Shown here piece after piece: positions 1,971-48,562 of a DNA stretch of 50,972 nt. The stretch is from an uncultured Candidatus Saccharibacteria bacterium (GTDB lineage: Bacteria; Patescibacteriota; Minisyncoccia; Phycocordibacterales; SBAW01). Positions within the stretch are counted from its first letter, which is position 1. Every line of letters starts with the position of its first letter. Location of the stretch: NCBI GenBank assembly GCA_964615415.1, contig CAZTNI010000004.1, positions 1-50,972 on the forward strand, given 5' to 3'. The position numbers were made by a program, and so were the translations under genes. The notes under the pieces were generated by a model that searched no databases, was not told where the DNA came from, and saw nothing but the letters and a program-made list of their open reading frames with translations.

Positions 1971-1973
1971 AAG

Positions 1974-2439
1974 TGGACCTGGGGAGAATCGAACTCCCGT
2001 CTTGTATAAATACTTGTGATTATTATTTACGGGGGTAGACTATTTACTTTGATTGCAGGCCAAAAAGAAATAGACAAAGAAACACACCAAGTCGGTTTAC
2101 ACAACCTTAACTCCTGCAATTAATAGGGGCTATGATTTCTCACGGCCCTCCACCACTCTATTTAACTGACTTATTAGAGTAAGTCTTGTAGTATAGAGAC
2201 TACAATCCTAATCTCTCACACTACATCGTGAGGTTCTTTGGTGCGCAACTTGGATTACTATGGCGTTACGCGGCCATACGATTGATGTTCGCATTCTTAC
2301 GAGCGCGGAAAGCATCAAGCGAAACAACACTGTTGTCAGTGGCGTTTGATTTGTGGATAATCTTATTTAAAGTCTACGATTACCAGAGAGACTCCCCGAA
2401 ACAATTACTTTCTTTACACAATCGAAACCAGTCAGGCCC
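1974..2439 (-). ncRNA. ssrA: tmRNA (SsrA), full length, about 466 nt
   Basis: The 5' end GGGCCUGACUGGUUUCGAUUGUG matches the tmRNA 5' consensus pattern. The 3' end is GAC-GGGAG UUCGAUU CUCCC-CAGGUCC-A. The acceptor GGGCCUG/CAGGUCC has a G3:U70 wobble and an A73 discriminator. An internal tag-like frame ends ...NRMAA-UAA, with the stop inside hairpin AUGGC-CGCGUAAC-GCCAU. There is no credible CDS in the region. Confidence 0.8.
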
Positions 2440-2535
2440 GAAGAGAGCATTTACTTTTTCCACAGACAGCGAAAAGAAATACACAAAGAAAAGTCTGCAA
2501 CCGTCCCAAGGAGGGGGACTCTGTGACTGAGAGGA

Positions 2536-2853
2536 TTACTTTCTATCTACTAACTCAGCTATTTTTGTTGTATCTTCCAACTTCGCAATTCTTTCAAGAA
2601 GTCTATCAACCTCACTTCTGAGAGAATCTACCCGTGCAGTAGTAAGTTCAAGCTCTTTGTTTCTAATGGAATTTTCTTTTGTGATTTCTTCAACGAGCAA
2701 ACTCATCGCAATACTAAAAGCATCTCGAACTTCTTGTACTTCAGCTTTTCTACATTCAGCAGCAAGTACTCCTAGCCTATAACAAAGCATTTGTTCTTTA
2801 GTATCGAACTCGAAGTCATTGCCGATAATAGAAGATACTTCATGAAGCTTCAT
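2536..2853 (-). CDS. Hypothetical coiled-coil protein (105 aa)
   Basis: ORF track entry on the same strand as the operon. The C-terminal half is heptad-like and charged. Confidence 0.7.
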   Translation of the reverse strand: MKLHEVSSIIGNDFEFDTKEQMLCYRLGVLAAECRKAEVQEVRDAFSIAMSLLVEEITKENSIRNKELELTTARVDSLRSEVDRLLERIAKLEDTTKIAELVDRK

Positions 2854-2979
2854 ACTTTACCTATTGTTGATGTGAGTGGTGCAATAAAAAATCCTAACCA
2901 GAACCCTGGAATTTAATCCATACTCAGGAATTCTCATTCTGTTGCAACAGTGAGAATACTAGCCGGAAAGGATTTGGAT

Positions 2980-3054
2980 ATCTACTGGTGGGAATCGAAC
3001 CCACATTGGACGTTTTTTCCAGTATCGTCTCAACGAATTGAGATTTACAGTAGA
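2980..3054 (-). ncRNA. Non-canonical tRNA-like element (75 nt): perfect acceptor and T-arm, irregular D and anticodon arms
   Basis: Acceptor TCTACTG/CAGTAGA plus T-arm GTGGG TTCGATT CCCAC. The middle folds only as an extended arm (GACGA..ACGTC) with an oversized loop around CUGGAAA. It lies in a 320-nt ORF-free gap (2854-3213). Confidence 0.4.
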
Positions 3055-3213
3055 ATACCTAAGTTTGTGTTATTGAGGCAAACTTAGAAACCCACAGAGA
3101 GTTTAACTGAGTTTAATGTCATCAAGTCACTCACAAATTGAGACACCTAATTACTTTAAGTTGATTGGATAAAGAATTAGGAAAGAAAAGCCAGTCTATA
3201 CATTACTTCTATT

Positions 3214-3735
3214 TCAGTTGGAAATCTCAGCGAAACGCTTCGCAAGCTCTTCCATAGTAAGCTTGCCTTCCTTGAAGAGAGACTGAAGCTCATCGAAGCG
3301 ATTAATCTTCTCCTTAGCAGAGACAGAAGTATCCTCACGCCAAGTATAAGTCTTGCACTTACGAAGACCAGCTTCAATCATTTCCTCTTCCGTACCATTC
3401 GTAGCCATACGAACAGCGGCCTTACCATCTCGTGTAGCAGCATCACGAGTTACATCATTGAACACAGCAAGAAGCTTATCAACACCACCACAATCAGCGG
3501 CAGCTTCCTCTAATGTTTCAAACTGCGGATACTCGAAACGTTCAGCGGGAATTGAAATCTTAACAGGAATAACATCCTGTCCAGCGGGAGTGTCCGCCTT
3601 ATTGCGAACGTTGTTTGTAATCTCAACGATATTCGGACGATACTCACCAGCCTTAGCTAAACCTGCAAGAACTTCCTCATCCTTCTCAAGATACTTCTTA
3701 CCAAGAAATGCGGGCAGACGCTCGTAACGCGGCAT
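3214..3735 (-). CDS. Hypothetical protein (173 aa)
   Basis: ORF track entry in operon orientation. The overlapping plus-strand ORF is Ser/Ala-rich junk. Confidence 0.75.
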   Translation of the reverse strand: MPRYERLPAFLGKKYLEKDEEVLAGLAKAGEYRPNIVEITNNVRNKADTPAGQDVIPVKISIPAERFEYPQFETLEEAAADCGGVDKLLAVFNDVTRDAATRDGKAAVRMATNGTEEEMIEAGLRKCKTYTWREDTSVSAKEKINRFDELQSLFKEGKLTMEELAKRFAEISN

Positions 3736-3798
3736 TGTTAACTCACAAAGAAAGTTTTGACTATCACTTGTACGCGGATAGTCTTGGCGTTGATGTGC

Positions 3799-3984
3799 TT
3801 ATTTCTTAAGGTAAAGAACTAATTCTACTTCACGAAGATGAATGAATCCTTCATCCTCTACCCTTTCGATTTCTAAATAATCTGATTCAGAACTAAAGCC
3901 AGGAATAACAACTACAATCTCTTCTTCTGGACCCATCGCTTCTTGCACCTTTTGTAATTGTGCAATTAAATCTGTGACTTTCAT
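3799..3984 (-). CDS. Small protein, MK(V/I)x(D/E)LI family, copy 1 (61 aa)
   Basis: Track ORF 3799..3996 trimmed to the ATG at 3982-3984, which follows GAGGAttaag. The sequence is MKVTDLIAQLQKVQEAMGPEEEIVVV... Confidence 0.65.
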   Translation of the reverse strand: MKVTDLIAQLQKVQEAMGPEEEIVVVIPGFSSESDYLEIERVEDEGFIHLREVELVLYLKK

Positions 3985-3985
3985 C

Positions 3986-4156
3986 TTAATCCTCAATGAT
4001 TAAAAGAACATAATCATGTACTGATGCATCTACTTCAATTACATTCTTATCATTACTACCATCTTCAGGTTGTTCAGACTTCTTACAAAACTTAAGTTCT
4101 CTATCTAAAGAGAGTCCACTATTTGCAATTTCTTGCAATAAATCCATAACTTTCAT
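3986..4156 (-). CDS. Small protein, MK(V/I)x(D/E)LI family, copy 2 (56 aa)
   Basis: Hand translation: MKVMDLLQEIANSGLSLDRELKFCKK...VLLIIED. GAGGT lies upstream. It is below the ORF-track cutoff. Confidence 0.5.
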   Translation of the reverse strand: MKVMDLLQEIANSGLSLDRELKFCKKSEQPEDGSNDKNVIEVDASVHDYVLLIIED

Positions 4157-4182
4157 ACAACTTACCTCGCGTCAGGAAGGGT

Positions 4183-4211
4183 AATATAGCACTCTCTAGG
4201 CTCCCTGTCAA
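4183..4211 (-). promoter_or_regulatory. Near-consensus sigma70-type promoter (TTGACA-17 nt-TATATT)
   Basis: Minus strand reads ctcTTGACAgggagcctagagagtgcTATATTaccc. It sits directly after the stop of 4220..4684 and upstream of 3986..4156. Confidence 0.6.
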
Positions 4212-4219
4212 GAGCCAAT

Positions 4220-4684
4220 TTAGAGGCTGTCAACTGGGACCGCGGGAGCGGGAGCGGGAGGCTGAGAATTAGAATTGTTTAGTTCATTAGTTGCCCAATA
4301 TTCTATAACATCTGCGATTTGTGGGAAGGTGAGACGAACTGGAGAATATTCTAATTGAGAATGAACTGAAATTCCTCTCTCCCTGAGTTCTTTATTTGTT
4401 GGATAGTATCCATCATTCAATAAAGTTAGTTCAACTCCCCCAAACTTAAAACCATACTTTTCTGGAAAACCATAGAATTCCTGAACTTCATAGGGAAGAT
4501 TTAAAGCTTGGCCTAGAAAGTGTAAGTCATTATCAAACTTTCCGAGTCCTGAAATTTCACAGGCTACACCGAGACAGCAATAAGAATTATCAAACTCTTT
4601 CAACCTACCTGTTGTTTGACGAAGCCTTCCAGACCTAAGTTCCTTGCATAGATTCATGCAATTGTTAAATTGGGTTTGGTTCAT
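4220..4684 (-). CDS. YCCLGVA-motif family protein, copy 1 (154 aa; Pro/Ala-rich C-terminal tail)
   Basis: Shares LRSGxxxQ...YCCLGVACEIS...LNDxG...IADxIxYW with 5391..5762 and 5764..6222. Confidence 0.8.
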   Translation of the reverse strand: MNQTQFNNCMNLCKELRSGRLRQTTGRLKEFDNSYCCLGVACEISGLGKFDNDLHFLGQALNLPYEVQEFYGFPEKYGFKFGGVELTLLNDGYYPTNKELRERGISVHSQLEYSPVRLTFPQIADVIEYWATNELNNSNSQPPAPAPAVPVDSL

Positions 4685-4797
4685 CTTACGTCATCTCCGT
4701 TAATAAATTTCATAACTATTGCTACTATTCCTACAGCGCACAAAAACATTACTGTTGCCATACCTATAATACTATAGGGATAAAGGGTACACATCAT
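4681..4797 (-). CDS. Small hydrophobic peptide (38 aa)
   Basis: Hand translation: MMCTLYPYSIIGMATVMFLCAVGIVAIVMKFINGDDVR. There is an ATGA overlap with the neighbouring gene at each end. Confidence 0.45.
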   Translation of the reverse strand: MMCTLYPYSIIGMATVMFLCAVGIVAIVMKFINGDDVR

Positions 4798-5048
4798 ATC
4801 TTACTCCCCTTTGGTTTGTAATCACGCATTTCAAACATCACTTCCCAAGTCTTATCATTAAGCTTAATCATAGACTTGATATGATGAAGATTGAGGAACT
4901 TAAGAAGAGTCTTATCACGCTGGAGAATTGATTTGATTATCTCGCTTTCATTTGTAGCGCAGAGTATAAGGACTTTGAGCTTAGTTCTATAAGACTCATA
5001 AGTATAATCATACTCTACACGGATACCGTCGATGATTAGGTGTTTCAT
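4794..5048 (-). CDS. Hypothetical protein (84 aa)
   Basis: ORF track entry, translationally coupled to its neighbours. Confidence 0.7.
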   Translation of the reverse strand: MKHLIIDGIRVEYDYTYESYRTKLKVLILCATNESEIIKSILQRDKTLLKFLNLHHIKSMIKLNDKTWEVMFEMRDYKPKGSKI

Positions 5049-5272
5049 TATTGTTCTACCTTTATCATGTCAGATATAGCAGTAAGTCTATCAATAAACC
5101 ACTGTGCATCCTTTGTGTTTACCAGGAGAAAACCAGCGTTTCCTCCGCGATTGAAAACAGTAATACAGGTATGTTGTATTCCTTCATCTACAGAAATAGA
5201 AGAAAGAATCTCCGTTGCAGGAGAATAGAAATCTTCTTCATATTCTTTTGGAACGTATCGGTATTTCTTCAT
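5048..5272 (-). CDS. Hypothetical protein (74 aa)
   Basis: ORF track entry. GAGAGGAAT lies before the ATG, which follows the conserved post-tRNA leader. Confidence 0.7.
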   Translation of the reverse strand: MKKYRYVPKEYEEDFYSPATEILSSISVDEGIQHTCITVFNRGGNAGFLLVNTKDAQWFIDRLTAISDMIKVEQ

Positions 5273-5307
5273 ATTCCTCTCAGTTAAAGTAAAAGTACAT
5301 ACAACAA
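5273..5307 (-). promoter_or_regulatory. Conserved post-tRNA leader, copy (TTGTTGTATGTAC...GAGAGGA)
   Basis: Minus strand reads aaTTGTTGTATGTACttttactttaactGAGAGGAat-ATG. Related copies are at 1734-1786, 6872-6911, 8048-8086 and 8372-8411. Confidence 0.5.
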
Positions 5308-5380
5308 TTCCCCCAGCGGAACTCGAATCCGCAACCTAGTGATTAAAAGTCACTTGCTCTACCAGTTGAGCTATGAGGGA
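5308..5380 (-). tRNA. tRNA-Lys (anticodon UUU)
   Basis: TCCCTCA TA GCTC AACTGGTA GAGC A AGTGA CTTTTAA TCACT AGGTT GCGGA TTCGAGT TCCGC TGGGGGA A. 73 nt. Confidence 0.9.
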
Positions 5381-5390
5381 TTGTGAAGCT

Positions 5391-5762
5391 TTAACTCTTT
5401 GCAATTACCTTTTCGATTTCATCTGCGATTTCTTTGAAAGATGTTCCATTGTCATTCATTGAGGTTAATGCATAAACTAGAAAAGGAAGGTTTCCAAAAG
5501 CACTTCTGAATCCGTACATTTCCCTTACTGTTGGACTATTAACAAGAGCAGTATCCTCATCAGCATCAGGAAAAATTACTGCATAATTCGTTTCACTATT
5601 TGTCAGTTTCCATTCAACTCCGGCAAGGTCGTATGCTACACCCAGACAACAATACTTGTTATCATAACTGCGAAGACAATTTTGACCTTGCTCATACTTC
5701 CCAGACCTCAGAGCTTCAACAAGCTTAGTGAGGTTTTCTTTTTGTGTTTGAGTGAGAGACAT
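5391..5762 (-). CDS. YCCLGVA-motif family protein, copy 2 (123 aa)
   Basis: MSLTQTQKENLTKLVEALRSGKYEQGQNCLRSYDNKYCCLGVAYDL...MNDNGTSFKEIADEI. Confidence 0.8.
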   Translation of the reverse strand: MSLTQTQKENLTKLVEALRSGKYEQGQNCLRSYDNKYCCLGVAYDLAGVEWKLTNSETNYAVIFPDADEDTALVNSPTVREMYGFRSAFGNLPFLVYALTSMNDNGTSFKEIADEIEKVIAKS

Positions 5763-5763
5763 T

Positions 5764-6222
5764 TTATTCCTCTATTGTAATGTTATCAATCCAATACTGA
5801 ATAATATCCGCAATCATTGAGAAAGTAAACTCTCCCGAATCATTGAGAACATCCAATCTAACTTCAGTATAAGCTCGGAGAAAGGTTTGATCCTTAATCA
5901 TCTTTTGTTCAAACACACTAGCTTGGTCTTCTCTACTGTATACATCCGACAACATTAAACCACGAGAATTTTCAAGCCCGAAATATTTAGTAACATCAAA
6001 TGGCATGGACGTAGAACTTGCAACATCCTTGTTAATTTCGTAACAAAGATTATTTGCAATATTGTATTCCCATTTACCAAGATTGGAAATTTCACAGGCT
6101 ACACCGAGACAACAGTAACCAGCCTCAGTTTTAAGCAAGTCTGTAGCTTGTTTATACTTTCCAGAACGTAGAGCAGCAATCCATTCTTGGATGCGTTGTT
6201 TCTGTACTAGTGTGAGAGACAT
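5764..6222 (-). CDS. YCCLGVA-motif family protein, copy 3 (152 aa)
   Basis: MSLTLVQKQRIQEWIAALRSGKYKQATDLLKTEAGYCCLGVACEIS...LNDSGEFTFSMIADIIQYW. Confidence 0.8.
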   Translation of the reverse strand: MSLTLVQKQRIQEWIAALRSGKYKQATDLLKTEAGYCCLGVACEISNLGKWEYNIANNLCYEINKDVASSTSMPFDVTKYFGLENSRGLMLSDVYSREDQASVFEQKMIKDQTFLRAYTEVRLDVLNDSGEFTFSMIADIIQYWIDNITIEE

Positions 6223-6449
6223 TATTGAACAACTTCCTCAGGATTGACAAAGGAAACATTACCATGTTCATCTTCGATTGCTACTTTTGGAAGCTGGAGC
6301 GAGAACACTACACAGTCTGATTCTAAATCAGCGGAGAAATCATGAACAGATAGGATATCTCCTACAATATCCAAGTTCATATTCTGTGTAAGCATTGTGC
6401 GTTCAAGCAGAGAGATTAACTCTTGTTTTGTTGTAGCTAGGATTTTCAT
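6222..6449 (-). CDS. Hypothetical protein (75 aa)
   Basis: ORF track entry with 1-nt and 4-nt overlaps with its neighbours. Confidence 0.7.
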   Translation of the reverse strand: MKILATTKQELISLLERTMLTQNMNLDIVGDILSVHDFSADLESDCVVFSLQLPKVAIEDEHGNVSFVNPEEVVQ

Positions 6450-6670
6450 TTTGCTGCCTCCTTCATAGCCTCTTTTAATTCTTCGTCTGTGAAGGTGTCA
6501 AGACTAGCCATAAACTTATTATGGAGAGTGTAGATTGTATTTGGAGCTTGTGTTTGCAAACCAACAATTCCTTGTGTTGCTGTTTCTTTATCACCTCCAT
6601 AAACAGCATCCATAGTGAGTTTTAGAAGTGAGAATTCTAACAAATCTAAAACTAGTATAACTTGTTTCAT
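6446..6670 (-). CDS. Hypothetical protein (74 aa after trimming)
   Basis: Track ORF 6446..6769 trimmed to the ATG at 6668-6670, which follows AGGAGGAAGTAAA. Confidence 0.65.
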   Translation of the reverse strand: MKQVILVLDLLEFSLLKLTMDAVYGGDKETATQGIVGLQTQAPNTIYTLHNKFMASLDTFTDEELKEAMKEAAK

Positions 6671-6790
6671 TTTACTTCCTCCTTGAAAAGTGAAATAATG
6701 AGTGGAACAAATACCCTCTTTCGGAATTGAACCGAAATATCTGGAGCCAAAGTCCAGTGCATTAGCCAATTATGCTAAGAGGGAGAGTTT

Positions 6791-6871
6791 CTACCATGTA
6801 TCATTATGTTCTGTACCAAACATCCAGAGTGCTACGAGAATGTAGACTACTATTACTATTGTGATTAGCAT
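6791..6871 (-). CDS. Possible small hydrophobic peptide (26 aa)
   Basis: Hand translation: MLITIVIVVYILVALWMFGTEHNDTW. GAGGAGAAATAAA precedes the ATG. The ORF is very short. Confidence 0.3.
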   Translation of the reverse strand: MLITIVIVVYILVALWMFGTEHNDTW

Positions 6872-6911
6872 TTTATTTCTCCTCTAAAGTGAAGGTACAT
6901 ACAAACAAAAG
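6872..6911 (-). promoter_or_regulatory. Conserved post-tRNA leader, copy
   Basis: Minus strand reads cTTTTGTTTGTATGTACcttcactttAGAGGAGaaataaa-ATG. Confidence 0.5.
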
Positions 6912-6995
6912 TGCCCCATCCCGGACTCGAACCGAGACGCTATTTCTAGCGAGAGATTTTAAGTCTCTTGTGTCTGCCAGTTTCACCAATGGGGC
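6912..6995 (-). tRNA. tRNA-Leu (anticodon UAA), class II with a long variable arm
   Basis: Acceptor GCCCCAT ... anticodon arm AGAGA CTTAAAA TCTCT, variable arm CGCTAGAAATAGCG, T-arm CTCGG TTCGAGT CCGGG, then ATGGGGC A. 84 nt. Confidence 0.9.
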
Positions 6996-7004
6996 GGCGT
7001 TACA

Positions 7005-7169
7005 TTAGATTATTACTACTTCAATAGAACTATATTCACAGTTAGGATTTACGCATTTTTGAACATCTATAACAGGTTTACAATTTCTGGCTCTAGGTAA
7101 TACTACTTGAACATCTCCGTGTTCCTTCTCGAATTGTTTAAGAAGTTTGATAAGCTCAGAAATCTTCAT
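7005..7169 (-). CDS. Small protein, MK(V/I)x(D/E)LI family, copy 3 (54 aa)
   Basis: Hand translation: MKISELIKLLKQFEKEHGDVQVVLPRARNCKPVIDVQKCVNPNCEYSSIEVVII. Confidence 0.5.
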   Translation of the reverse strand: MKISELIKLLKQFEKEHGDVQVVLPRARNCKPVIDVQKCVNPNCEYSSIEVVII

Positions 7170-7266
7170 GTTCACACTTCTCCTCTTGATTCACCCAGGT
7201 TGAGGATGTTACATCAGATTCTAGTATGATTACTAGAAATATGAGTGCTATGAGCCAGTAGATCAT
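7156..7266 (-). CDS. Small hydrophobic peptide (36 aa)
   Basis: Hand translation: MIYWLIALIFLVIILESDVTSSTWVNQEEKCEHEDF. GAGGTAGATTAAG precedes the ATG. Confidence 0.4.
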   Translation of the reverse strand: MIYWLIALIFLVIILESDVTSSTWVNQEEKCEHEDF

Positions 7267-7267
7267 C

Positions 7268-7429
7268 TTAATCTACCTCAATGAGAAAGATAGGAGTATC
7301 TTCCTTATCACCAGCAGTCACTTTAACTGACTTAATAGGAAGATATACATTGGAAGTAGCAACTCTAACTTTCACTTCCATTTCGGGAGATTTCCAGAGT
7401 ACACTGAGAAGTTGTATGACAGTCATCAT
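7268..7429 (-). CDS. Small protein, distant member of the MK(V/I)x(D/E)LI family (53 aa)
   Basis: Hand translation: MMTVIQLLSVLWKSPEMEVKVRVATSNVYLPIKSVKVTAGDKEDTPIFLIEVD. Confidence 0.45.
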   Translation of the reverse strand: MMTVIQLLSVLWKSPEMEVKVRVATSNVYLPIKSVKVTAGDKEDTPIFLIEVD

Positions 7430-7430
7430 T

Positions 7431-7595
7431 TTAAAATCTCCAGTTAAGTCTTACAATCAGAGTCCAACGCCAGAAATCAAGAGTGAGTGTCCAATTACGC
7501 TCAGTAATCTTGTTTTCTTTATCACTGGGATAGCAATAAAGCCATACTCCAAGACCTTCAAGAAACTTCTCACTCTTTCTAGTTTCAATTTGCAT
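7431..7595 (-). CDS. Hypothetical small protein (54 aa)
   Basis: Hand translation: MQIETRKSEKFLEGLGVWLYCYPSDKENKITERNWTLTLDFWRWTLIVRLNWRF. The ATG directly follows the TAA of the upstream gene. Confidence 0.4.
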   Translation of the reverse strand: MQIETRKSEKFLEGLGVWLYCYPSDKENKITERNWTLTLDFWRWTLIVRLNWRF

Positions 7596-7805
7596 TTACC
7601 TTTTCCTCGATACAAGGTTAGACAACTGACGGAGATTCTCTTTCTCTTCTCCGCGGAAATAAACCAGAGTTGGAGCTGTCTTGTGAGAAAATACCATAGC
7701 TCCCATGTACTTTTGAACACGGGAGCATTTCACACAAGTTGTTGTTTCTGGAAGAACTTCGAGGCGAGCGGGAGAGATTTCAGAGCGACAGATTGAGCAA
7801 ATCAT
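7596..7805 (-). CDS. DksA/TraR-type C4 zinc-finger protein (69 aa)
   Basis: MICSICRSEISPARLEVLPETTTCVKCSR shows the CxxC-(17)-CxxC pattern with the ARL..P signature typical of TraR/DksA C4 fingers. Confidence 0.7.
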   Translation of the reverse strand: MICSICRSEISPARLEVLPETTTCVKCSRVQKYMGAMVFSHKTAPTLVYFRGEEKENLRQLSNLVSRKR

Positions 7806-8047
7806 TGTCCTATCACATGAGCATAAAGAAAGTCGATAATAGCAGAGTTACTTTCCATCTCATAACCAGTCCAAGAGACACCATCAATTACTTCTACTTT
7901 GTCATGCCCTCCCCAGATAGAAGCATTTTTAAGTGCCTCTCTGAGAGATTCAGGAGTATTAGAAGTTGGAATAAAAATACGGGGTCCATAACCACACTTA
8001 GAATCTTGAAATTTGACTAAGAGTTGGGCATTCATTATTCTAAACAT
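7802..8047 (-). CDS. Hypothetical protein (81 aa after trimming)
   Basis: Track ORF 7802..8077 trimmed to the ATG at 8045-8047, which follows AAAGAGGATAAG in the conserved leader. Confidence 0.65.
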   Translation of the reverse strand: MFRIMNAQLLVKFQDSKCGYGPRIFIPTSNTPESLREALKNASIWGGHDKVEVIDGVSWTGYEMESNSAIIDFLYAHVIGQ

Positions 8048-8086
8048 CTTATCCTCTTTGTGAGAGTTATACAACAAAACAAATCA
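8048..8086 (-). promoter_or_regulatory. Conserved leader, copy (nearly identical to 8372-8411)
   Basis: Minus strand reads gaTTTGTTTTGTTGTATAACTCTCACAAAGAGGAtaag-ATG. Confidence 0.55.
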
Positions 8087-8371
8087 TTAAAGCTTCACTC
8101 CCCAACGATTGAGAACAAAAATGCGGGCCTGCGGGTGAAACTTTCGCAAGTCCTTGATAGAAGTGCAAGAATCCAATTTCAATCCATGAGAATAAATCTT
8201 CCTATCCCCAAGCTTCTTCCACGTACGATAAAGTTCGCAAGTGAACTGAGAGACAGAGAAATTACGCTTACTCATGAACTGATGAGTCAAAGAATCAGGC
8301 TCTCGCATCTTCTTGGCGATATTCAAACAACGAGCAAGAGATTCTCTGAATTCAGCTTCGGCTCTTCCCAT
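8087..8371 (-). CDS. Hypothetical protein (94 aa after trimming)
   Basis: The N-terminus of track ORF 8087..8440 overlaps tRNA-Met. It was trimmed to the ATG at 8369-8371 (MGRAEAEF...), which follows AAAGAGGAATTAAAT. Confidence 0.65.
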   Translation of the reverse strand: MGRAEAEFRESLARCLNIAKKMREPDSLTHQFMSKRNFSVSQFTCELYRTWKKLGDRKIYSHGLKLDSCTSIKDLRKFHPQARIFVLNRWGVKL

Positions 8372-8411
8372 ATTTAATTCCTCTTTGTAAGAGTTATACA
8401 ACAAAACAAAA
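8372..8411 (-). promoter_or_regulatory. Conserved post-tRNA leader, copy
   Basis: Minus strand reads TTTTGTTTTGTTGTATAACTCTTACAAAGAGGAattaaat-ATG. Confidence 0.55.
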
Positions 8412-8483
8412 TGGACCCAGCGAGATTTGAACTCGCGCACTTCCGATTATGAGTCGGCCGCTCTACCGCTGAGCTATGGGTCC
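8412..8483 (-). tRNA. tRNA with CAU anticodon (elongator Met, or Ile2 if C34 is lysidinylated)
   Basis: GGACCCA TA GCTC AGCGGTA GAGC G GCCGA CTCATAA TCGGA AGTGC GCGAG TTCAAAT CTCGC TGGGTCC A. 72 nt. It lacks the initiator-type three G:C pairs in the anticodon stem. Confidence 0.85.
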
Positions 8484-9044
8484 GAAATACGGTTTATCCT
8501 AGTTTCATCACCGTAAGTTTTTTAACTAACTAGGACTCAGGCTAGTCATTATATTCGCCGCGCGTCAGACTATTATGGCGTTAAGATATTATCTTTCTCT
8601 GTTTATATTGGAATCCCAATACTTTAGAGTACGCCTGCAATTGAGCGCGAGCTAGCTAGTTTCATCTTTCATATTAACGAGAGGTGAGAAACTAGCAAAC
8701 ATATCCTAACGCGGTTTGTTTCAGAGAGCCATACACACAACAAACCATAACAGTTGTGTATAGCTTACCACAGATAGGGATTTATATACTCATCATCGTT
8801 GCCCTATCAGCACTAGATTGAGGATAGATTATTCAACATATCATCGAAATGTGTTGAATTTTCGGAATCTATCATTCCGCCCTTTCAATGTAGGGATACA
8901 CGTTATGTCCCGTAATACTGACATAACACCAAATAAAGGACGATAACCTAGAAAACGCAGCGTGAACTGGCCCCTTTTGTTATCTAATGTGTTCACGCAC
9001 ACTAGACTTTTTGTGGGGACTAGGATAACATACCGTCCAACAAT
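8484..9044 (-). ncRNA. Candidate large structured ncRNA (about 560 nt, ORF-free, hairpin-dense), bounded by a tRNA-like element and tRNA-Met
   Basis: There is no ORF above about 27 codons in any frame, while the rest of the genome is densely coding. Perfect stems include 8961-8967/8991-8997, 8903-8909/8920-8926, 8831-8838/8853-8860, 8735-8741/8753-8759, 8655-8663/8688-8696 and 8498-8504/8528-8534. The strong promoter at 9245-9273 lies upstream. Confidence 0.45.
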
Positions 9045-9156
9045 AGGGCACCTTAGGAATCGAACCTAAGTACAATAGAGACGCAAACTCAGTCATGTAG
9101 GTCATGCTACACTTTATCTATTGTAAACTCCACTTCCTACTATAAAGGTTGTGCCC
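9045..9156 (-). ncRNA. tRNA-like element (112 nt): acceptor, D-like arm and T-arm, with a 53-nt extended arm in place of the anticodon arm
   Basis: Acceptor GGGCAC(A)/(G)GTGCCC, T-arm CTTAGG TTCGATT CCTAAG. ACAATAGA pairs with TCTATTGT (8 bp) and encloses hairpin GTAG-CATGAC-CTAC. No canonical anticodon loop can be drawn. Confidence 0.45.
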
Positions 9157-9244
9157 TGATGAAAACTAACACTCCCCCGCCTTATGCTAATATCAGCACA
9201 AACCCACATACAGGTATCCAGCATGGGCCGTCGGGAGAGTGGTC

Positions 9245-9273
9245 AATATAACACACTCTCTACCCTTTGTCAA
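9245..9273 (-). promoter_or_regulatory. Near-consensus sigma70-type promoter (TTGACA-17 nt-TATATT) reading into the ORF-free RNA unit
   Basis: Minus strand reads ctcTTGACAaagggtagagagtgtgtTATATTgacc. It shares ctcTTGACA...TAGAGAGTG..TATATT with the promoter at 4183-4211. Confidence 0.6.
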
Positions 9274-9284
9274 GAGCACAAAGA

Positions 9285-9392
9285 CTAGAACACACTTACA
9301 ACAAGCACCACAAGCCAGAATAACACAATCACAGGACTGAGAAAGAGTAGTAGAATACCACATTCTTTCCAGAGCTGGAGATACTTGTTCAT
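9285..9392 (-). CDS. Small hydrophobic peptide (35 aa)
   Basis: Hand translation: MNKYLQLWKECGILLLFLSPVIVLFWLVVLVVSVF. The start is 1 nt after the TAA of the upstream gene. Confidence 0.4.
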   Translation of the reverse strand: MNKYLQLWKECGILLLFLSPVIVLFWLVVLVVSVF

Positions 9393-9393
9393 G

Positions 9394-9630
9394 TTAAACA
9401 TCCTTGCAAATTGTAAGAGCTTTCTTGAGATAAGAATGTTCCTCACTACCAGTACACTTCTCACTATATACTGGCTCTACTACAACTTCGACACAATACT
9501 GAGAAGAATATTTATTCTTCCAAGATTCTGCCAAAGTTACAGCTTGTTCCTTATCAAAGAGTATTTCACTCTCTAAGCATCCATCTTGATTAAAGGGCAA
9601 GTACCACAAGCGAACTGTGTATCTATTCAT
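9394..9630 (-). CDS. Hypothetical protein (78 aa after trimming)
   Basis: Track ORF 9394..9660 trimmed to MNRYTVRLWY... (ATG at 9628-9630), which overlaps the stop of the small upstream ORF. Confidence 0.6.
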   Translation of the reverse strand: MNRYTVRLWYLPFNQDGCLESEILFDKEQAVTLAESWKNKYSSQYCVEVVVEPVYSEKCTGSEEHSYLKKALTICKDV

Positions 9631-9631
9631 T

Positions 9632-9763
9632 TCACTTTCCAGCCGGAAGAATGAAAGCAACTATGAAATCTCTTGCATCGTTGATTGAAGCAAACATAGC
9701 AATCTCTGGATTCTTTTCCCAGCTTGCTACTGGCAGTCTGTAAACAGAATACCATCCTAACAT
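9632..9763 (-). CDS. Possible small protein (43 aa from the ATG; 56 aa if it starts at the GTG at 9800-9802)
   Basis: Hand translation: MLGWYSVYRLPVASWEKNPEIAMFASINDARDFIVAFILPAGK. GGGAGGAG lies upstream of the alternative GTG. Confidence 0.35.
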   Translation of the reverse strand: MLGWYSVYRLPVASWEKNPEIAMFASINDARDFIVAFILPAGK

Positions 9764-9857
9764 ATTCCTTGATTCACGAATATATCGGTCTGCCTTATTC
9801 ACACTCTCCTCCCAAGTTAAGAATGTACTAGCACTAAGTCTGGCTCCCCACTTTAAC

Positions 9858-10160
9858 TAAAATTCAACTATTCGAGGATTCAAGGATTCGAGGATTCAAC
9901 TAGCCTCTACCCCCTCCTCCCTGTCCTAGCTAGTGTCATTCTGCTACACTAGGCAATAGCTTCCTATCTCTACTAGTGTCTATTAGACACACATAGTAGG
10001 TAGGTTGTTTATTATTTTTTTTTGTAACAATACAGTAACAACTACAGCCTACCCCCTAATCTGGCACAGTCCTTGAAAGAGGACACTATCCAGCTACAGG
10101 GGTAGCCCTACCCTAGGCTTGAATCCTAGAATAGTCGAATAGTTGAATAGTTGAATTTTA
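9858..10160. repeat. Iteron-like repeat block: a 16-bp perfect inverted repeat plus 8-bp-periodic direct repeats, flanking a core of about 210 bp with an AT-rich tract
   Basis: taaaattcaactattc (9858-9873) is the reverse complement of gaatagttgaatttta (10145-10160). aggattc occurs three times at 9875, 9883 and 9891, with a reverse-complement copy at 10121. gaatagt occurs three times at 10129, 10137 and 10145. The tract gtttattatttttttttgtaac is at about 10007-10028. Further gaatagttga-like copies are at 10189-10198 (reverse complement) and 11189-11198. Confidence 0.75.
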
Positions 10161-10241
10161 ATTACAGTTAGGTTCAAAAGTAATTAAGTTCAACTATTAC
10201 ATTTATTGTTACAGTTAGTGCTAGTAAGCAATAAGAGCACT

Positions 10242-10289
10242 AAAAAAAGATGCTAAGGAATCGAACCTTAGTTAAAAACCATTCATCTT
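10242..10289 (-). terminator. tRNA-like minihelix (acceptor plus T-arm only) followed by U7: probable intrinsic terminator or 3' end of the first-gene transcript
   Basis: Minus strand reads AAGATG-aatggtttttaa-CTAAGG TTCGATT CCTTAG-CATCTT-TTTTTT. Confidence 0.5.
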
Positions 10290-10291
10290 TA

Positions 10292-10315
10292 GTGTTTAAC
10301 AATCAAACACTCTAG
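10292..10315. repeat. Left copy of a 24-bp imperfect inverted repeat (internally dyad-symmetric) flanking gene 10429..10830
   Basis: gtgtttaacaatcaaacactctag compared with the reverse complement of 10870-10893 (ctgtttgacaatcgaacactctag) matches at 21 of 24 positions. Internal dyad: TGTTT-N7-AAACA. Confidence 0.7.
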
Positions 10316-10428
10316 CTAGTATCACTGGAAGTTGTACGAGAGAGACTGAAAGACTTGGGCGAAAGATTGGGCATACTGTGCTTCAATCTTTACGCCATCC
10401 GGGTACACGATGATTGCGTAGGTCATCG

Positions 10429-10830
10429 TTACTTCTTAAGCGGGAAAAACTGCGCGTACTTGTTGAACAGCTCTTCCACTTCCTCGATAGAAGATTCCAG
10501 AGCGGAATCATCCATCGAAAGGAAAGTGTTTGCATCCTTCACGAACTGGTTAGCGACGTTCTGCATGATTCCGCAAACAGCGCGAGCAGTACGGATGCGA
10601 GCGTCATCGATCGGATGCGAGAGATCGAGCTTGTCTGCCGAGAACATGACTTTTGCCAGTTCCTCTGGAATCGCATCCTTGTGTGCTTCCGCGAGTGCGC
10701 GAAGTTCTCGCGCTGACTTCAAGGAACGCAACGCGGACTTTGCCGCGTTAAGTTCCGCTTGTGCATCGTTGGCGGTCTTAAGTGCCGTCATACGCTGCGG
10801 AAGCTTGTTGCTGTGAGTCGTGTAAGACAT
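10429..10830 (-). CDS. Hypothetical helical protein (133 aa); first gene of the leftward arm; strongly GC-rich relative to the genome
   Basis: AAGAGGATACACACA precedes the ATG. The 60-nt lines I counted inside it are 58-60% GC, against 33% for a typical early-region line. The antisense ORFs (10355..10816 and 10414..10716) are Ser/Ala/Cys-rich junk. Confidence 0.75.
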   Translation of the reverse strand: MSYTTHSNKLPQRMTALKTANDAQAELNAAKSALRSLKSARELRALAEAHKDAIPEELAKVMFSADKLDLSHPIDDARIRTARAVCGIMQNVANQFVKDANTFLSMDDSALESSIEEVEELFNKYAQFFPLKK

Positions 10831-10835
10831 TGTGT

Positions 10836-10866
10836 GTATCCTCTTTGATTGGTTGTGAGAGGATAC
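10836..10866 (-). promoter_or_regulatory. Hairpin that sequesters the Shine-Dalgarno sequence of gene 10429..10830
   Basis: Minus strand reads GTATCCTCT-cacaaccaatcaa-AGAGGATAC. It is a 9-bp perfect stem whose 3' arm is the SD sequence. Confidence 0.5.
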
Positions 10867-10869
10867 TAA

Positions 10870-10893
10870 CTAGAGTGTTCGATTGTCAAACAG
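10870..10893. repeat. Right copy of the 24-bp inverted repeat; overlaps a TTGACA hexamer about 40 nt upstream of the first gene (operator-like)
   Basis: ctagagtgttcgattgtcaaacag. The minus strand reads cTGTTTGACAATCGAACActctag. Confidence 0.7.
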
Positions 10894-11496
10894 CGACCTA
10901 ACGGTAGCCAAGTGTGGCACCGCACTACCCTACATAGCAACTCGCGTGCTAGAATATGTAAGTTGTTGTGTGACAATGACTTAGCTTTTTCGTTAATGTA
11001 ATCTTAATGTTCTGTTCGGGTGCGTTTCGGGGTATTGGTGCCACACTGTAGCGGCGTTGCCGCAACGTTCAGAAACTATACACTTTCATGATGTTTGAGA
11101 ATCATTCTCAATCTTAATGTAGCACGCTTGTAAGCAAGTGCTTGCTTGCATATCCTGTGCTTGCTTGACGTGTGAATAGATGCGAGTGGAATAGTTGACG
11201 TGTAAACTAAAAGCACTTTACTCTGCAAAGCACTTTATAACATAAAGAGGGGGAGGGAAAAATCACACGGTCCATCGCGCGGAAAGAGACTCAGATAATT
11301 TTTTCAAAAAATTCCTAGAAAGAGAATAAGATTAATGATTATTATGAGTTAAATATAATAATGTTAATAATGGAAATGGGATAATCCTCCGGTATGACTA
11401 GCCTAGCACCATTGCCTTGCCAGCGCGGGAGTGTTAGATTAGATTCCAGAGGAAGGCCAGAGAATCAATAACTATTTTAGAGAGGTTTTTAGCAAA
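10894..11496. promoter_or_regulatory. Divergent control region with several short repeats and an AT-rich block
   Basis: gtgtggcacc (10912-10921) pairs with ggtgccacac (11037-11046). gtgcttgcttg occurs twice (11138, 11157). ttgacgtgt occurs twice (11165, 11195). Palindrome aattttttcaaaaaatt is at 11297-11313. An AT-rich tract spans 11320-11390. GCGCGGGAG is at 11423-11431. Confidence 0.6.
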
Positions 11497-38841: not shown

Positions 38842-39675
38842 TTAAGCAGCAAACTTTAAACTATCCATCTTATTCTTGTCCCACACTTCACCAACATCGC
38901 AATCGACGGGGATTTTGAATGTCTCACCATTAATCATCAATGGACGGTGTAAGAGATGATAGACTTTCTCTGACACTTCTGAGACTAGTGTAAGTGGGAC
39001 TTCTAAGATGACAGAATCGTGAGAGGAGTTAACAATCTTGATTTCTTCGTTGGAAGGAACAACTAATTGTTCATCAATACCAACAACACCACCAGGAATT
39101 CCTAACTCTGGTTGTATTGCTCCCATGCAATGATCTGCAACTGTTGATTGAGGAATGTAAGCATAAGCTTCTTTGAATAACTCTGGACCCCAGCGACCGA
39201 AGAAAGTTCTTTCGTGTCCATAAACTGTTCTAAGCTTTCTCTCTGGAGCTAAGGCTCTTTGTATATCCATCCACCAGCGAGGAATCTCAGGATAGAGATC
39301 TAACCATTTCTGATGTAACTTCTTAGCATCAGAAATAGAGATAGACATATACGGAGGATAGATTGACTCACTATTAATCATGTGTGCAACCATCATTGCA
39401 GAGGTACCGTAAGAGCAAGAATGATTGAACTTCTTACCCATGTAACGTTCATCGGATGTAGGAATAACATCATCCGTATAGTTGAACATACCTCGGGTAG
39501 ATGTATAGTGAATGTCAAACTTTGTTCCAGCGCGCCTAAGAGCTTGCTTCATAGTCTCAGAGTTAGCTAGGTGAGCTACAATCCAAGACTCAGCCTGAGA
39601 GAAGTCATAAGCTAGAAGAGTACAATTAGGCGCGGCGCGGAGGATGGAGCGAATTGGGAATTTTTCTTTCTTCAT
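38842..39675 (-). CDS. Family-A DNA polymerase, C-terminal fragment (palm/fingers motifs A, B and C)
   Basis: LLAYDFSQAESWIVAHL is motif A (DYSQIELR-like). RYMGKKFNHSCSYG is motif B. VNSSHDSVILEV is motif C. Confidence 0.8.
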   Translation of the reverse strand: MKKEKFPIRSILRAAPNCTLLAYDFSQAESWIVAHLANSETMKQALRRAGTKFDIHYTSTRGMFNYTDDVIPTSDERYMGKKFNHSCSYGTSAMMVAHMINSESIYPPYMSISISDAKKLHQKWLDLYPEIPRWWMDIQRALAPERKLRTVYGHERTFFGRWGPELFKEAYAYIPQSTVADHCMGAIQPELGIPGGVVGIDEQLVVPSNEEIKIVNSSHDSVILEVPLTLVSEVSEKVYHLLHRPLMINGETFKIPVDCDVGEVWDKNKMDSLKFAA

Positions 39676-39974: not shown

Positions 39975-40228
39975 CTTACACTAACATCCCTTTCAAACTT
40001 ATAGGCTCTATCACACACTACACAGATAAACAAATTCTCGTGTGCTTTGAGAAGAGGATTTACTTTAGCGAAAAGCTTTGAGTTGCAACGATCTATATAT
40101 TCATATATGGTATCTTTACCTTTTGCGTACTCACCCTTACATCTAAACTCTTCCTTATCAACAAGCAATCTAACTACTGGCTGCCACTCCAGAGACTTCT
40201 TCGGATTGATTATCGTCGGGGACTTCAA
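39971..40228 (-). CDS. Hypothetical Cys-containing protein (85 aa) inside the polymerase split
   Basis: ORF track entry. Cysteines occur at FRCKG, RCNS and ICVVCD. The start lies 59 nt inside the end of the polymerase N-fragment ORF. Confidence 0.55.
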   Translation of the reverse strand: MKSPTIINPKKSLEWQPVVRLLVDKEEFRCKGEYAKGKDTIYEYIDRCNSKLFAKVNPLLKAHENLFICVVCDRAYKFERDVSVR

Positions 40229-41837
40229 TTTCTAGTTCCTCCCTCGGCATTGTTTGAGCGTTAAATCCAGTATCATCATAGTATTTAGCACACGACCAGC
40301 GAGATGTTTCTGTTCCACAGACTTTCCAGACAGAGCGAACTCTTCCATCTGGAGAGATACCAATGTTGAAGTAAGAAGAAACTAACTTCTCATTACCTCT
40401 AAGATTAAGAATCAGACGAACTAAGCCAAGCTTCTTACGCCAAGCATTCTTAGCTTCTTCTGTTTTCTTCTCTGCTATCTGTCCCTTAATATAACCAATC
40501 AAACTAACAAGAGCATCTTGGTCTGCTGTAACTCCGCCCTTGCGATTCTTACGCTCAGGTAAGCCAAGCTCGACATAGAGATAGTCTTGAACTTTCTTAT
40601 GAGATTGGATATTAATTACTTTACCAGCCATGTGCATGAACGTAAGATAGTCTAACTCCCAAGACTTCTTGAGATAATCCTGGAGGAACTTCTTACGCTC
40701 TGCATCCACATAGAATCCGAACTTAGTCATGCGATACGAGACTCGCAGAGACTTCATTTTATACTGAAAGTATGGATTTTCATGCATACCTTTTTCTAAG
40801 AAGTGCTCAAGAGCTTCGTAGGTTACTACACAGTCTAAACAGTTATAAATGTATAGAGATTCTCTGTTTGCAATCTTCTCTGAGTGAGACTTAGAATCCT
40901 CATCAAAGGTTATATCTGACCAGTAGCAAGGCCGCCAAGTGTAAATGGAACAGAGAAAGTCAAGCCCCTTTGGTAATTCTGGTTGCGTAATATACTGAGC
41001 AACCATTGTATCGAAAGTCGCGTCTGGAGATTCGATTCCGTGGAAGAGTCTTTTAACAGTGATATCAAATGACGAGTTATGGTAAACTGTTCTGGTGAGC
41101 TTGGGAAGTAAAGTTCTGAGGAGCTGTAATGTACTCTCCGTTTTGCAGACAAAACATATGGCACGTTCCCTTGAGAGTCCAAAGCCCACACAGAGTATTC
41201 CGAGATTGTCTCTTCTGGTTTCGATGTCAATGGTAATGTACTTGCCAGATTCACAATGGGCAATAATTTCTTGTGCGAGATTATGTTGCTCAATCGGATC
41301 TGCTGTAACTGTGAATCTGTCATTATAGACTCTCTGCTTTCCTTGTTTGTATAGGAATGCTTTTGCTATGTCAGCATCGAAGACTGGAAACAAAGAATTG
41401 TTAAATGCTACATCCCGCGGATTGTGAGTCGGGAGAGTAGGGATACCATTATATAACAAAGGGGAACCACGCCATGCATAGATACCATACTTTTGTGTAA
41501 TGTATCTGAGAGGCTGGTCCCCAAGTAGAATAATCAATTTTATCTTTGTCTTGTAAGCTTCAATGTAAGCTTTAATCTTCTGTAAGCCAGTAGCTAGAGC
41601 TTCACTTCCTTCTAAGTAACGGAAGTCATTATCATCCGGTCTTTGCTGAGATAGAGAAGCAACAACACAAGAATCAAGGGGGATAGGTAAACAAGTTGCG
41701 AGGGTGGCCCCGGCATCATTGTCTAAAAGCTTACCTTTTTCTTCCTCTTCTCTAGTAGGGAAGTCTGTGATAATTAAGACTTCGCTACCCGCTGTGCCTC
41801 TCCACGGGGTTATCTTTTGATTGACGTGGGAGTCCAT
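40170..41837 (-). CDS. Family-A DNA polymerase, N-terminal fragment: UDG-like domain, 3'-5' exonuclease, and the polymerase N-terminal half
   Basis: GSEVLIITDFPTREEEEKGKLLDNDAGATL is a family-4 UDG-like motif. ITIDIETR and YNCLDCVVTYE are exonuclease motifs. ...DGRVRSVWKVCGTETSRWSCAKYYDDTGFNAQTMP is the equivalent of TGRLS..PNLQNIP. The ORF then ends after a 22-aa acidic tail. Confidence 0.8.
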   Translation of the reverse strand: MDSHVNQKITPWRGTAGSEVLIITDFPTREEEEKGKLLDNDAGATLATCLPIPLDSCVVASLSQQRPDDNDFRYLEGSEALATGLQKIKAYIEAYKTKIKLIILLGDQPLRYITQKYGIYAWRGSPLLYNGIPTLPTHNPRDVAFNNSLFPVFDADIAKAFLYKQGKQRVYNDRFTVTADPIEQHNLAQEIIAHCESGKYITIDIETRRDNLGILCVGFGLSRERAICFVCKTESTLQLLRTLLPKLTRTVYHNSSFDITVKRLFHGIESPDATFDTMVAQYITQPELPKGLDFLCSIYTWRPCYWSDITFDEDSKSHSEKIANRESLYIYNCLDCVVTYEALEHFLEKGMHENPYFQYKMKSLRVSYRMTKFGFYVDAERKKFLQDYLKKSWELDYLTFMHMAGKVINIQSHKKVQDYLYVELGLPERKNRKGGVTADQDALVSLIGYIKGQIAEKKTEEAKNAWRKKLGLVRLILNLRGNEKLVSSYFNIGISPDGRVRSVWKVCGTETSRWSCAKYYDDTGFNAQTMPREELEIEVPDDNQSEEVSGVAASS

Positions 41838-43421: not shown

Positions 43422-43452
43422 TTTATTATAGGTTATATTGTTTGTGTTACAA

Positions 43453-43526
43453 TGTCCCCGGCAGGAATCGAACCTGCGACCTACTGCTTAGAAGGCAGTC
43501 GCTCTATCCAACTGAGCTACGAGGAC
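43453..43526 (-). tRNA. tRNA-Arg (anticodon UCU)
   Basis: GTCCTCG TA GCTC AGTTGGATA GAGC G ACTGC CTTCTAA GCAGT AGGTC GCAGG TTCGATT CCTGC CGGGGAC A. 74 nt. Confidence 0.9.
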
Positions 43527-43599
43527 AAATATCTAGTAGAGAAGTAGTTTCCGAATCCTACTTTTTATGGCGGATAAAACTCTACTAGATAGTTACTAC

Positions 43600-48533: not shown

Positions 48534-48562
48534 AATATAACACCTTGGGGGTGACTTGTCAA
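48534..48562 (-). promoter_or_regulatory. Near-consensus sigma70-type promoter (TTGACA-17 nt-TATATT)
   Basis: Minus strand reads cccTTGACAagtcacccccaaggtgtTATATTgtcc. Confidence 0.6.

Follow-up and report, generated by a model that had tools for sequence, protein, structure and literature searches.

In the tRNA cluster of bacteriophage T4, two small stable RNAs of ~120-140 nt, species 1 and 2, are co-transcribed with the tRNAs and freed from the tRNA precursor by host tRNA-processing enzymes. Further tRNA-like elements lie within longer eukaryotic and viral transcripts, such as MALAT1 with its mascRNA and the tRNA-miRNA transcripts of murine gammaherpesvirus 68. The t-elements of plant mitochondria adopt non-canonical cloverleaves with a conserved GGTTCRANYCC arm and direct cleavage by RNase P and RNase Z (PMC1920247). 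Phages and prophages encode the large RNAs GOLLD and ROOL, frequently in the vicinity of tRNA islands, and in one case GOLLD adjoins tRNA-Met (PMC12286853). Here, we describe an 801-nt region of a circular phage genome (positions 8484-9284, minus strand) that has a promoter of its own, a tRNA-like element, and a 561-nt hairpin-rich body directly upstream of a tRNA-Met gene. The window analyzed was the whole stretch of 50,972 nt (contig CAZTNI010000004.1). We propose, with a probability of roughly 0.45, that the region is a non-coding precursor punctuated by tRNA structures that yields a lineage-specific RNA of ~560 nt.

According to this proposal, host sigma-70 RNA polymerase would initiate at the promoter 9273-9245, and the region would form the non-coding 5' part of an early transcript consisting, in order, of a leader of ~88 nt, a 113-nt tRNA mimic, the 561-nt RNA, tRNA-Met(CAU), and early genes. 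The mimic and the tRNA would serve as punctuation. RNase P would cut 5' of each (~9157 and ~8483), cleavage behind the mimic (~9044) would fall to the tRNA 3'-end machinery, and the lineage-specific RNA would be released with ends able to pair. The released RNA would presumably be stable and may act in trans. This mechanism agrees with the one suggested in an initial annotation of the DNA, whereas the RNA family suggested there does not agree with our results.

Like GOLLD and ROOL, the region is several hundred nucleotides long, non-coding, phage-borne, and located beside tRNA genes including tRNA-Met (PMC12286853). Its context is of the GOLLD type, a phage early arm with five tRNAs and a transfer-messenger RNA (tmRNA) in which the region abuts tRNA-Met, although such a context is not sufficient alone. 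Unlike a typical GOLLD, the body is shorter, and unlike both GOLLD and ROOL, it has no family of homologues from which a conserved ornate architecture could show. We searched Rfam 15 (4227 models) at gathering thresholds on the whole genome and permissively (E <= 10) on 1201 and 591 bases. The region had no match at gathering thresholds and only chance-level matches at E <= 10; specifically, the covariance models of GOLLD (RF01998, on 1201 or 591 bases) and ROOL (RF03087) gave no match at E <= 10. Thus, the initially noted likeness to these RNAs holds for the phage and tRNA context but not for family kinship. The species 1 and 2 RNAs of T4 may be taken as an analogy, as they too are phage non-coding RNAs on a tRNA precursor. 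Unlike these RNAs, which belong to a dense tRNA cluster, the body has only a single mimic and a single tRNA as neighbors, and it is four times larger.

Eight sequencing runs hold identical or near-identical contigs of this phage, which represent two haplotypes of 50,947 and 50,762 nt; two exact-protein look-ups returned no further haplotypes. The nearest phages by terminase are 61-72% identical, among them the closest sister phages L006, L007, and L008 (61-70%). In all frames of this phage, the region 8484-9284 is truly non-coding. TAA, TAG, and TGA are present in each of the six frames, and reassignment of any single stop opens a frame of at most 104 codons. The non-coding status assigned initially therefore stood, but not the statement that no open reading frame (ORF) exceeds ~27 codons, since the mechanical ORF list contains frames of 53 aa (8841-9002, GTG start), 41 aa, and 36 aa on the minus strand and of 42 and 35 aa on the plus strand. 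The 53-aa GTG ORF was rejected as a gene because it lacks a Shine-Dalgarno sequence and, in the second haplotype, carries non-synonymous changes and has lost its stop codon. Likewise, the start codon of a 20-aa ATG ORF at 8875 is gone in the second haplotype. No protein-level similarity of the region to the sister phages was found by tblastx. Together, the stops in all frames, the start and stop losses between haplotypes, and the empty tblastx search rule out a hidden or stop-recoded gene.

The non-coding block ends exactly at the 5' end of tRNA-Met, as noted initially and as now placed by ARAGORN and Rfam (8484 abuts 8483). It had also been described as an ORF-free exception in a tightly packed genome. 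The region is indeed the largest such stretch in the early arm, but not the only one, the remaining stretches being ~9660-10350, 10830-11430, and 1845-2230.

The near-perfect promoter that was initially read as firing into the region is supported by its consensus match with an extended -10 element (Table 1) and by its recurrence throughout the clade. Within this genome, two further minus-strand copies of TTGACA-N17-TATATT lie at 48562 and 4211. The motif, often accompanied by TGTGTTATATT, is also present in L007 (7750), L008 (2761), L014, L015, L210, and L218, and the L008 sequence aligns at the promoter 9245-9273. This recurrence indicates a genuine promoter family of the phage clade. The copy at 4211 ends ~27 nt before the start codon of a gene (4156); for the promoter at 9273, the nearest credible start codon (8371) is located ~870 nt downstream. 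We found no intrinsic terminator between the promoter and the downstream genes. In the leader, the 150-nt window 9151-9300 had a fold z-score of -3.5, and no substitution separates the two haplotypes within 9170-9241.

The tRNA-like element downstream of the promoter, already recognized in the initial annotation, extends over 113 nt (9157-9045) and is predicted to form a four-way junction. A 7-bp acceptor-like stem (AGGGCAC/GUGCCCU) is stacked on a perfect 6-bp T stem (CUUAGG-UUCGAUU-CCUAAG, loop GGTTCGATTCC), while the middle comprises a weak D-like hairpin and an arm of ~55 nt that replaces the anticodon arm. A canonical tRNA was taken to have a 5-bp anticodon stem, a 7-nt loop, and an ARAGORN call or at least 29 bits with the Rfam tRNA model. 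The element was not called by ARAGORN at default settings, had no Rfam tRNA match at E <= 10, and carries the ~55-nt middle arm. An intron-containing or low-scoring tRNA was rejected as well, as lowered ARAGORN thresholds gave only forced, mutually overlapping solutions. In its predicted fold, the element is a tRNA mimic and not a decoding tRNA.

The element has the structure by which t-elements are defined, namely an acceptor-like stem stacked on a T-arm within a non-canonical cloverleaf (PMC1920247). As with the plant mitochondrial t-elements, the mimic lies inside a longer transcript in which RNase P and tRNA 3'-end enzymes would set the ends of its neighbors (PMC1920247). In contrast to t-elements, it resides in a bacteriophage rather than an organelle, bears the long arm in the anticodon position, and its cleavage is a prediction. 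The mimic and the genuine tRNA that bracket the transcript could both be signals for processing by RNase P and at the 3' end.

The minimum free energy (MFE) of the body, -167 kcal/mol, undercuts dinucleotide shuffles by 35 kcal/mol (z-score -4.8), whereas 14 length-matched coding controls had a mean z-score of -2.4 (standard deviation 1.2). Except for 8551-8700 and 8926-9075, the 150-nt windows across the body were unremarkable. In these fold models, the excess of structure over coding sequence is real but moderate. The ends of the body can be joined by a long-range terminal helix that pairs 9028-9019 with 8503-8494 (10 perfect bp) and 9036-9032 with 8493-8489 (5 bp). Its duplex energy of -22.7 kcal/mol ranks within the top 2.3% of 2192 segment pairs of the same spacing in this genome. 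The helix competes with a local hairpin (8497-8504/8528-8535).

Six of the seven stems listed in the initial annotation were recovered by a repeat scan (8655-63/8688-96, 8831-38/8853-60, 8735-41/8753-59, and 8498-8504/8528-34) or by the fold of the whole transcript (8903-09/8920-26 and the hairpin 8606-8621). The seventh, 8961-67/8991-97, is complementary by eye (CGTGAAC/GTTCACG) but is not used in the fold, which prefers a competing hairpin. The two CUAGUU-loop-AACUAG hairpins of the body have the 11-mer GAUGAAACUAG in common as a direct repeat. An nhmmer search with 15 tRNAs and tRNA-like elements of the clade recovered only the T-arm and revealed no decayed tRNA array in the body.

Natural variation was evaluated by mapping the differences between the two haplotypes on the MFE structure and partition function of the whole transcript. 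Seven differences fall into the 801-nt region, all within 8653-8953. G8873A and C8823U are predicted partners (pair probability 0.72) and together replace G-C by A-U in the basal pair of the 8823-8873 hairpin; a compensatory double of this kind arose by chance in 0.85% (P = 0.0085) of 200,000 random placements of seven substitutions. C8758U and A8653G turn C-G and A-U pairs into G-U wobbles, and the pairing is kept solely in the minus-strand RNA. Furthermore, A8861G sits in an internal loop, A8841U disrupts a marginal 3-bp apical extension, and U8953A disrupts a long-range pair of low probability. The region is free of indels between the haplotypes, although an indel of 402 nt is located just upstream. 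This indel (9392-9793) removes two small orphan genes immediately upstream of the promoter, and its flanks (9305-9387 and 9794-10331) are unusually divergent too.

Table 1 Features of the non-coding region, the adjoining tRNA gene, and the hairpin copies of the clade
Feature	Position	Strand	Basis
Sigma-70-type early promoter TTGACA-17-TATATT, extended -10 TG	9245..9273	minus	consensus scan, 11/12 positions
5' leader, predicted three-way junction closed by CACUCUCCC/GGGGGAGUG	9170..9241	minus	MFE and centroid concur; prediction
tRNA-like (t-element-like) element	9045..9157	minus	fold; T-loop motif scan
Hairpin-rich non-coding body, 561 nt	8484..9044	minus	stops in all frames, fold, no Rfam match
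Long-range terminal helix, 15 bp	8489..9036	minus	inverted repeat; in MFE structure
Extended hairpin	8823..8873	minus	outer helix 8873-8866/8830-8823, inner helix 8859-8852/8838-8831; bears the compensatory change
First CUAGUU-loop-AACUAG hairpin, 9 perfect bp, GCUAGUUUC ... GAAACUAGC	8652..8699	minus	inverted repeat
Second CUAGUU-loop-AACUAG hairpin, directly 5' of tRNA-Met	8494..8536	minus	inverted repeat
tRNA-Met(CAU)	8412..8483	minus	ARAGORN; Rfam tRNA 71.3 bits; kept in L006, L007, and L008
CUAGUU hairpins	this phage 8656-8695, 8499-8533; L006 5236-5266, 5171-5212, 653-691; L008 2430-2456; L014 4728-4751		

To place the region in its clade, we compared the loci of the closest terminase relatives and of 19 more distant ones. 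L006, L007, and L008 each have an ORF-free stretch of 0.6-1.4 kb at a comparable position, which lies behind the same promoter in L007 and L008 and upstream of a tRNA in L006 and L008. The L006 and L008 stretches share blocks with each other but none with this phage. Both contain a complete type I hammerhead on the minus strand (L006 6040-5909, L008 2619-2477) whose stem III is extended by an insert of 77-92 nt. With the slash marking the predicted cleavage site, the L006 hammerhead reads ACGGUUA-CUGAUGA-GUCCGUAAGGAC-GAA-AUCAACGUG ... CACGUUGAU-A/UAACCGU (predicted cleavage between 5916 and 5915), and that of L008 reads GCGGAUU-CUGAUGA-GCCCGUAAGGGC-GAA-ACAGGGU ... ACCCUGU-A/AAUCCGU (between 2484 and 2483). 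Both score under the Rfam thresholds (~20 bits), and stems I, II, and III all covary between the two phages. L006 and L008 each also have their own acceptor and T-arm elements (L006 5558-5641, with a sub-threshold Rfam tRNA score of 23.5 bits; L008 ~2176-2291), with acceptor sequences different from that of 9045-9157.

The complete hammerheads and tRNA-like elements suggest that the locus yields processed RNAs in L006 and L008. Judged from sequence, the locus would make processed non-coding RNA in this closest sub-clade, with a content that is turning over. The locus of this phage resembles that of L006 and L008 in its orientation, in following a gene of 129-137 aa and a palindromic block, in preceding a tRNA, and in the tRNA-like element and CUAGUU/AACUAG hairpins found in each; L008 has the same promoter in addition. 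In contrast to these two, this phage has no hammerhead core and the order of modules differs. Detectable sequence similarity to the sister loci is confined to the promoter (L008) and one hairpin (L006).

A relaxed core scan detected no hammerhead core (CUGAUGA-stem II-GAAA) in the whole 51-kb genome. A candidate directly upstream of tRNA-Met (8487-8548) was rejected, as its RAGATH-1 score was 16.8 bits (E 4-9) where the cut-off is 56.3, a G occupies core position C3, GAA is absent, and interleaved helices form instead.

In 257 kb of the clade, we counted seven CUAGUU-loop-AACUAG hairpins, compared to ~0.6 copies expected, and each copy is located in a non-coding or RNA-gene region, two of them in the body. 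The first of these two aligns locally to L006 ~5274-5228, with 3 of 300 shuffles scoring equally. The hairpin is possibly a shared recognition site for a protein or an RNase. In L006, an 89-nt non-canonical tRNA-Met-like gene (5075-5163, minus strand) has the same acceptor as the true tRNA-Met (GGACCCA/UGGGUCC), a CAU in an anticodon-like loop, and an aberrant D region. Two CUAGUU hairpins precede it, as they precede tRNA-Met in this phage.

The body itself is an orphan, since it had no match in any of the collections searched. BLASTN and nhmmer, through which the initial annotation meant to find homologues, returned none: no similarity to the body was detected in the sister and distant phage loci (nhmmer, blastn), in GenBank phages (blastn), or in IMG/VR and Joint Genome Institute (JGI) metagenomes (exact 18-21-mers). 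A scan for relatives by hairpin pattern returned ~190 loci, all of them unrelated. The body could also not be aligned globally to the L006 segment between the two tRNA-like elements of that phage.

Several findings weigh against the release of a discrete RNA from a tRNA-punctuated precursor. With no homologue in any collection searched, there is no phylogenetic covariation for the body. The compensatory evidence is a single event, read on an MFE model of one of the two sequences; the comparative support amounts to one compensatory pair and two wobble-preserving changes between two haplotypes. The region differs at 7 of 801 positions between the haplotypes, compared to 2 of 6040 in 2444-8483, and its central 300 nt diverge ~26 times faster than the flanking 6 kb. 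This rapid divergence suggests that the constraint on primary sequence is weak. One coding control folds better than the body (z-score -5.6), as does the antisense strand of the body (z-score -5.9). Finally, such an island is missing from the 10 kb that precede the terminase gene in L014 and L015 (terminase ~60% identical).

A serious alternative is a leader or spacer that acts only in cis, in which the hairpins and the mimic would process, stabilize, or time tRNA-Met and the downstream genes and no stable RNA would act in trans. The transcript would continue into tRNA-Met and a 94-aa gene with no terminator before this gene, which fits this explanation, as do the high haplotype divergence and the only moderate excess of structure. 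The unrelated sequence at the same place in the sister phages is likewise consistent with a generic, sequence-independent role, but these phages place a ribozyme there. Considering that all other tRNAs in this compact genome are located in short spacers, 800 nt would be costly for mere spacing. A leader of this kind is also at odds with the terminal helix and the compensatory pair, which suggest a defined fold.

It is unlikely that the region is a non-functional remnant, in which transcription would simply be tolerated and which would derive from lost genes or tRNAs or from an inserted element, either recently acquired or in decay. We found neither decayed ORFs (tblastx) nor decayed tRNAs, and between the haplotypes indels are absent and the substitutions preserve pairing instead of being randomly scattered. 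However, decay would fit the missing homologues, the orphan status of both neighboring genes, whose small proteins had no homologues in our searches, the missing island upstream of the terminase gene in L014 and L015, and the fact that the region is the fastest-diverging part of the haplotype-aligned block 2444-9391. The 10-bp terminal inverted repeat is readable as transposon ends, but an insertion resembling a miniature inverted-repeat transposable element was rejected because no target-site duplication was seen by eye and no second copy of the region was found in this genome, GenBank phages, or IMG/VR.

An element acting at the DNA level, such as an origin of replication activated by transcription or a site for packaging or regulation, is very improbable. 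A strong promoter directed into ORF-free DNA, a conserved palindromic iteron-like block only 0.6 kb upstream, and the equally good fold of the antisense strand would all be compatible with it. Yet the region contains neither iterons nor tandem repeats nor an AT-rich stretch for unwinding (GC content 0.39-0.43, at least the local average), two of its substitutions keep pairing in the minus-strand RNA alone, and, unlike the neighboring palindromic block, it is not conserved as DNA in the relatives. That the region belongs, as a divergent member, to one of the known families of large RNAs (GOLLD, ROOL, group I or II intron, RNase P RNA, or others) is hardly credible, as none of the 4227 Rfam 15 models matched beyond chance level at gathering thresholds or with permissive filters, even though size class and genomic context would fit (PMC12286853).

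We therefore return to the tRNA-punctuated precursor. The feature is real, and it is plausibly a phage RNA that is new and specific to its lineage, in a niche of a known kind. More tentatively, the body may represent a new class of large and structured RNAs in phages, as its first member to be seen, and the locus may be a site at which RNA cargo is swapped. If so, the cargo would be a 0.56-kb RNA flanked by a mimic in this phage and a hammerhead-cleaved RNA in L006 and L008. An RNA unrelated to GOLLD and ROOL would then occupy the same tRNA-island niche of phages, bracketed by a mimic and a tRNA. Together with the ribozyme-processed RNAs of the sister phages, this would suggest that such phages reserve a slot, expressed early, for structured RNAs that can replace one another. 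The same promoter with different cargo would provide a tractable comparative system for asking what such RNAs do. A mere leader or decaying spacer would be an ordinary feature of an uncultured phage.

Among the products encoded by the phage genome of ~50.95 kb are a large terminase, a family A DNA polymerase, and a portal and adaptor of the SU10 type. The phage is without a cultured relative, and the top GenBank phage terminase is only 30% identical. The early arm runs from ~11.5 kb to position 1 and consists of minus-strand genes, including small orphans, together with the tRNAs and the tmRNA; a sixth tRNA (43452-43527) is located outside it.

The palindromic block (9840-10330) carries CAACTATTC and GAATCCTCG repeats in inverted arms, and its fold z-scores (-5.9 and -6.7) are the strongest in the early arm. 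At the DNA level, the block is kept in L006 (6685-6936), L007 (7651-7774), and L008 (3435-3747), despite terminases that are only 61-70% identical, and is a candidate origin or regulatory site. A 133-aa gene (10429-10830, minus strand) has a GC content of 0.51-0.54, compared to ~0.39 for the genome, and no Pfam match. Genes of 129-143 aa occupy its position in the sister phages, a likeness by size and position. Behind this gene and a short trailing ORF, a terminator-like hairpin (10253-10271, minus strand) consists of CTAAGGTTCGATTCCTTAG followed by a T-run, and its stem-loop is a perfect look-alike of a tRNA T-arm.

Two separate minus-strand ORFs (38842-39675 and 40170-41837) make up the split family A DNA polymerase. 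One comprises the UDG-like, exonuclease, and N-terminal polymerase parts and the other the C-terminal polymerase; two small ORFs of 85 and 99 aa lie between them. The phage-encoded tmRNA (1971-2439, minus strand; Rfam 73.7 bits, E 7e-27) was not called by ARAGORN. L006 (467-908) and L007 (2114-2582) have a tmRNA too. In this phage, the two haplotypes vary in the tmRNA region, where they are 94% identical, with gaps. A second tRNA-like small RNA (2979-3055, minus strand) also occurs in L006 (1478-1547) and L007 (~2735-2800). It has a 7-bp acceptor stem, one inner hairpin, and a perfect T-arm. Between this phage and L006, the sequence of the inner hairpin differs and its pairing is kept. ARAGORN did not call this RNA, and the L006 copy scored 30.3 bits with the Rfam tRNA model.

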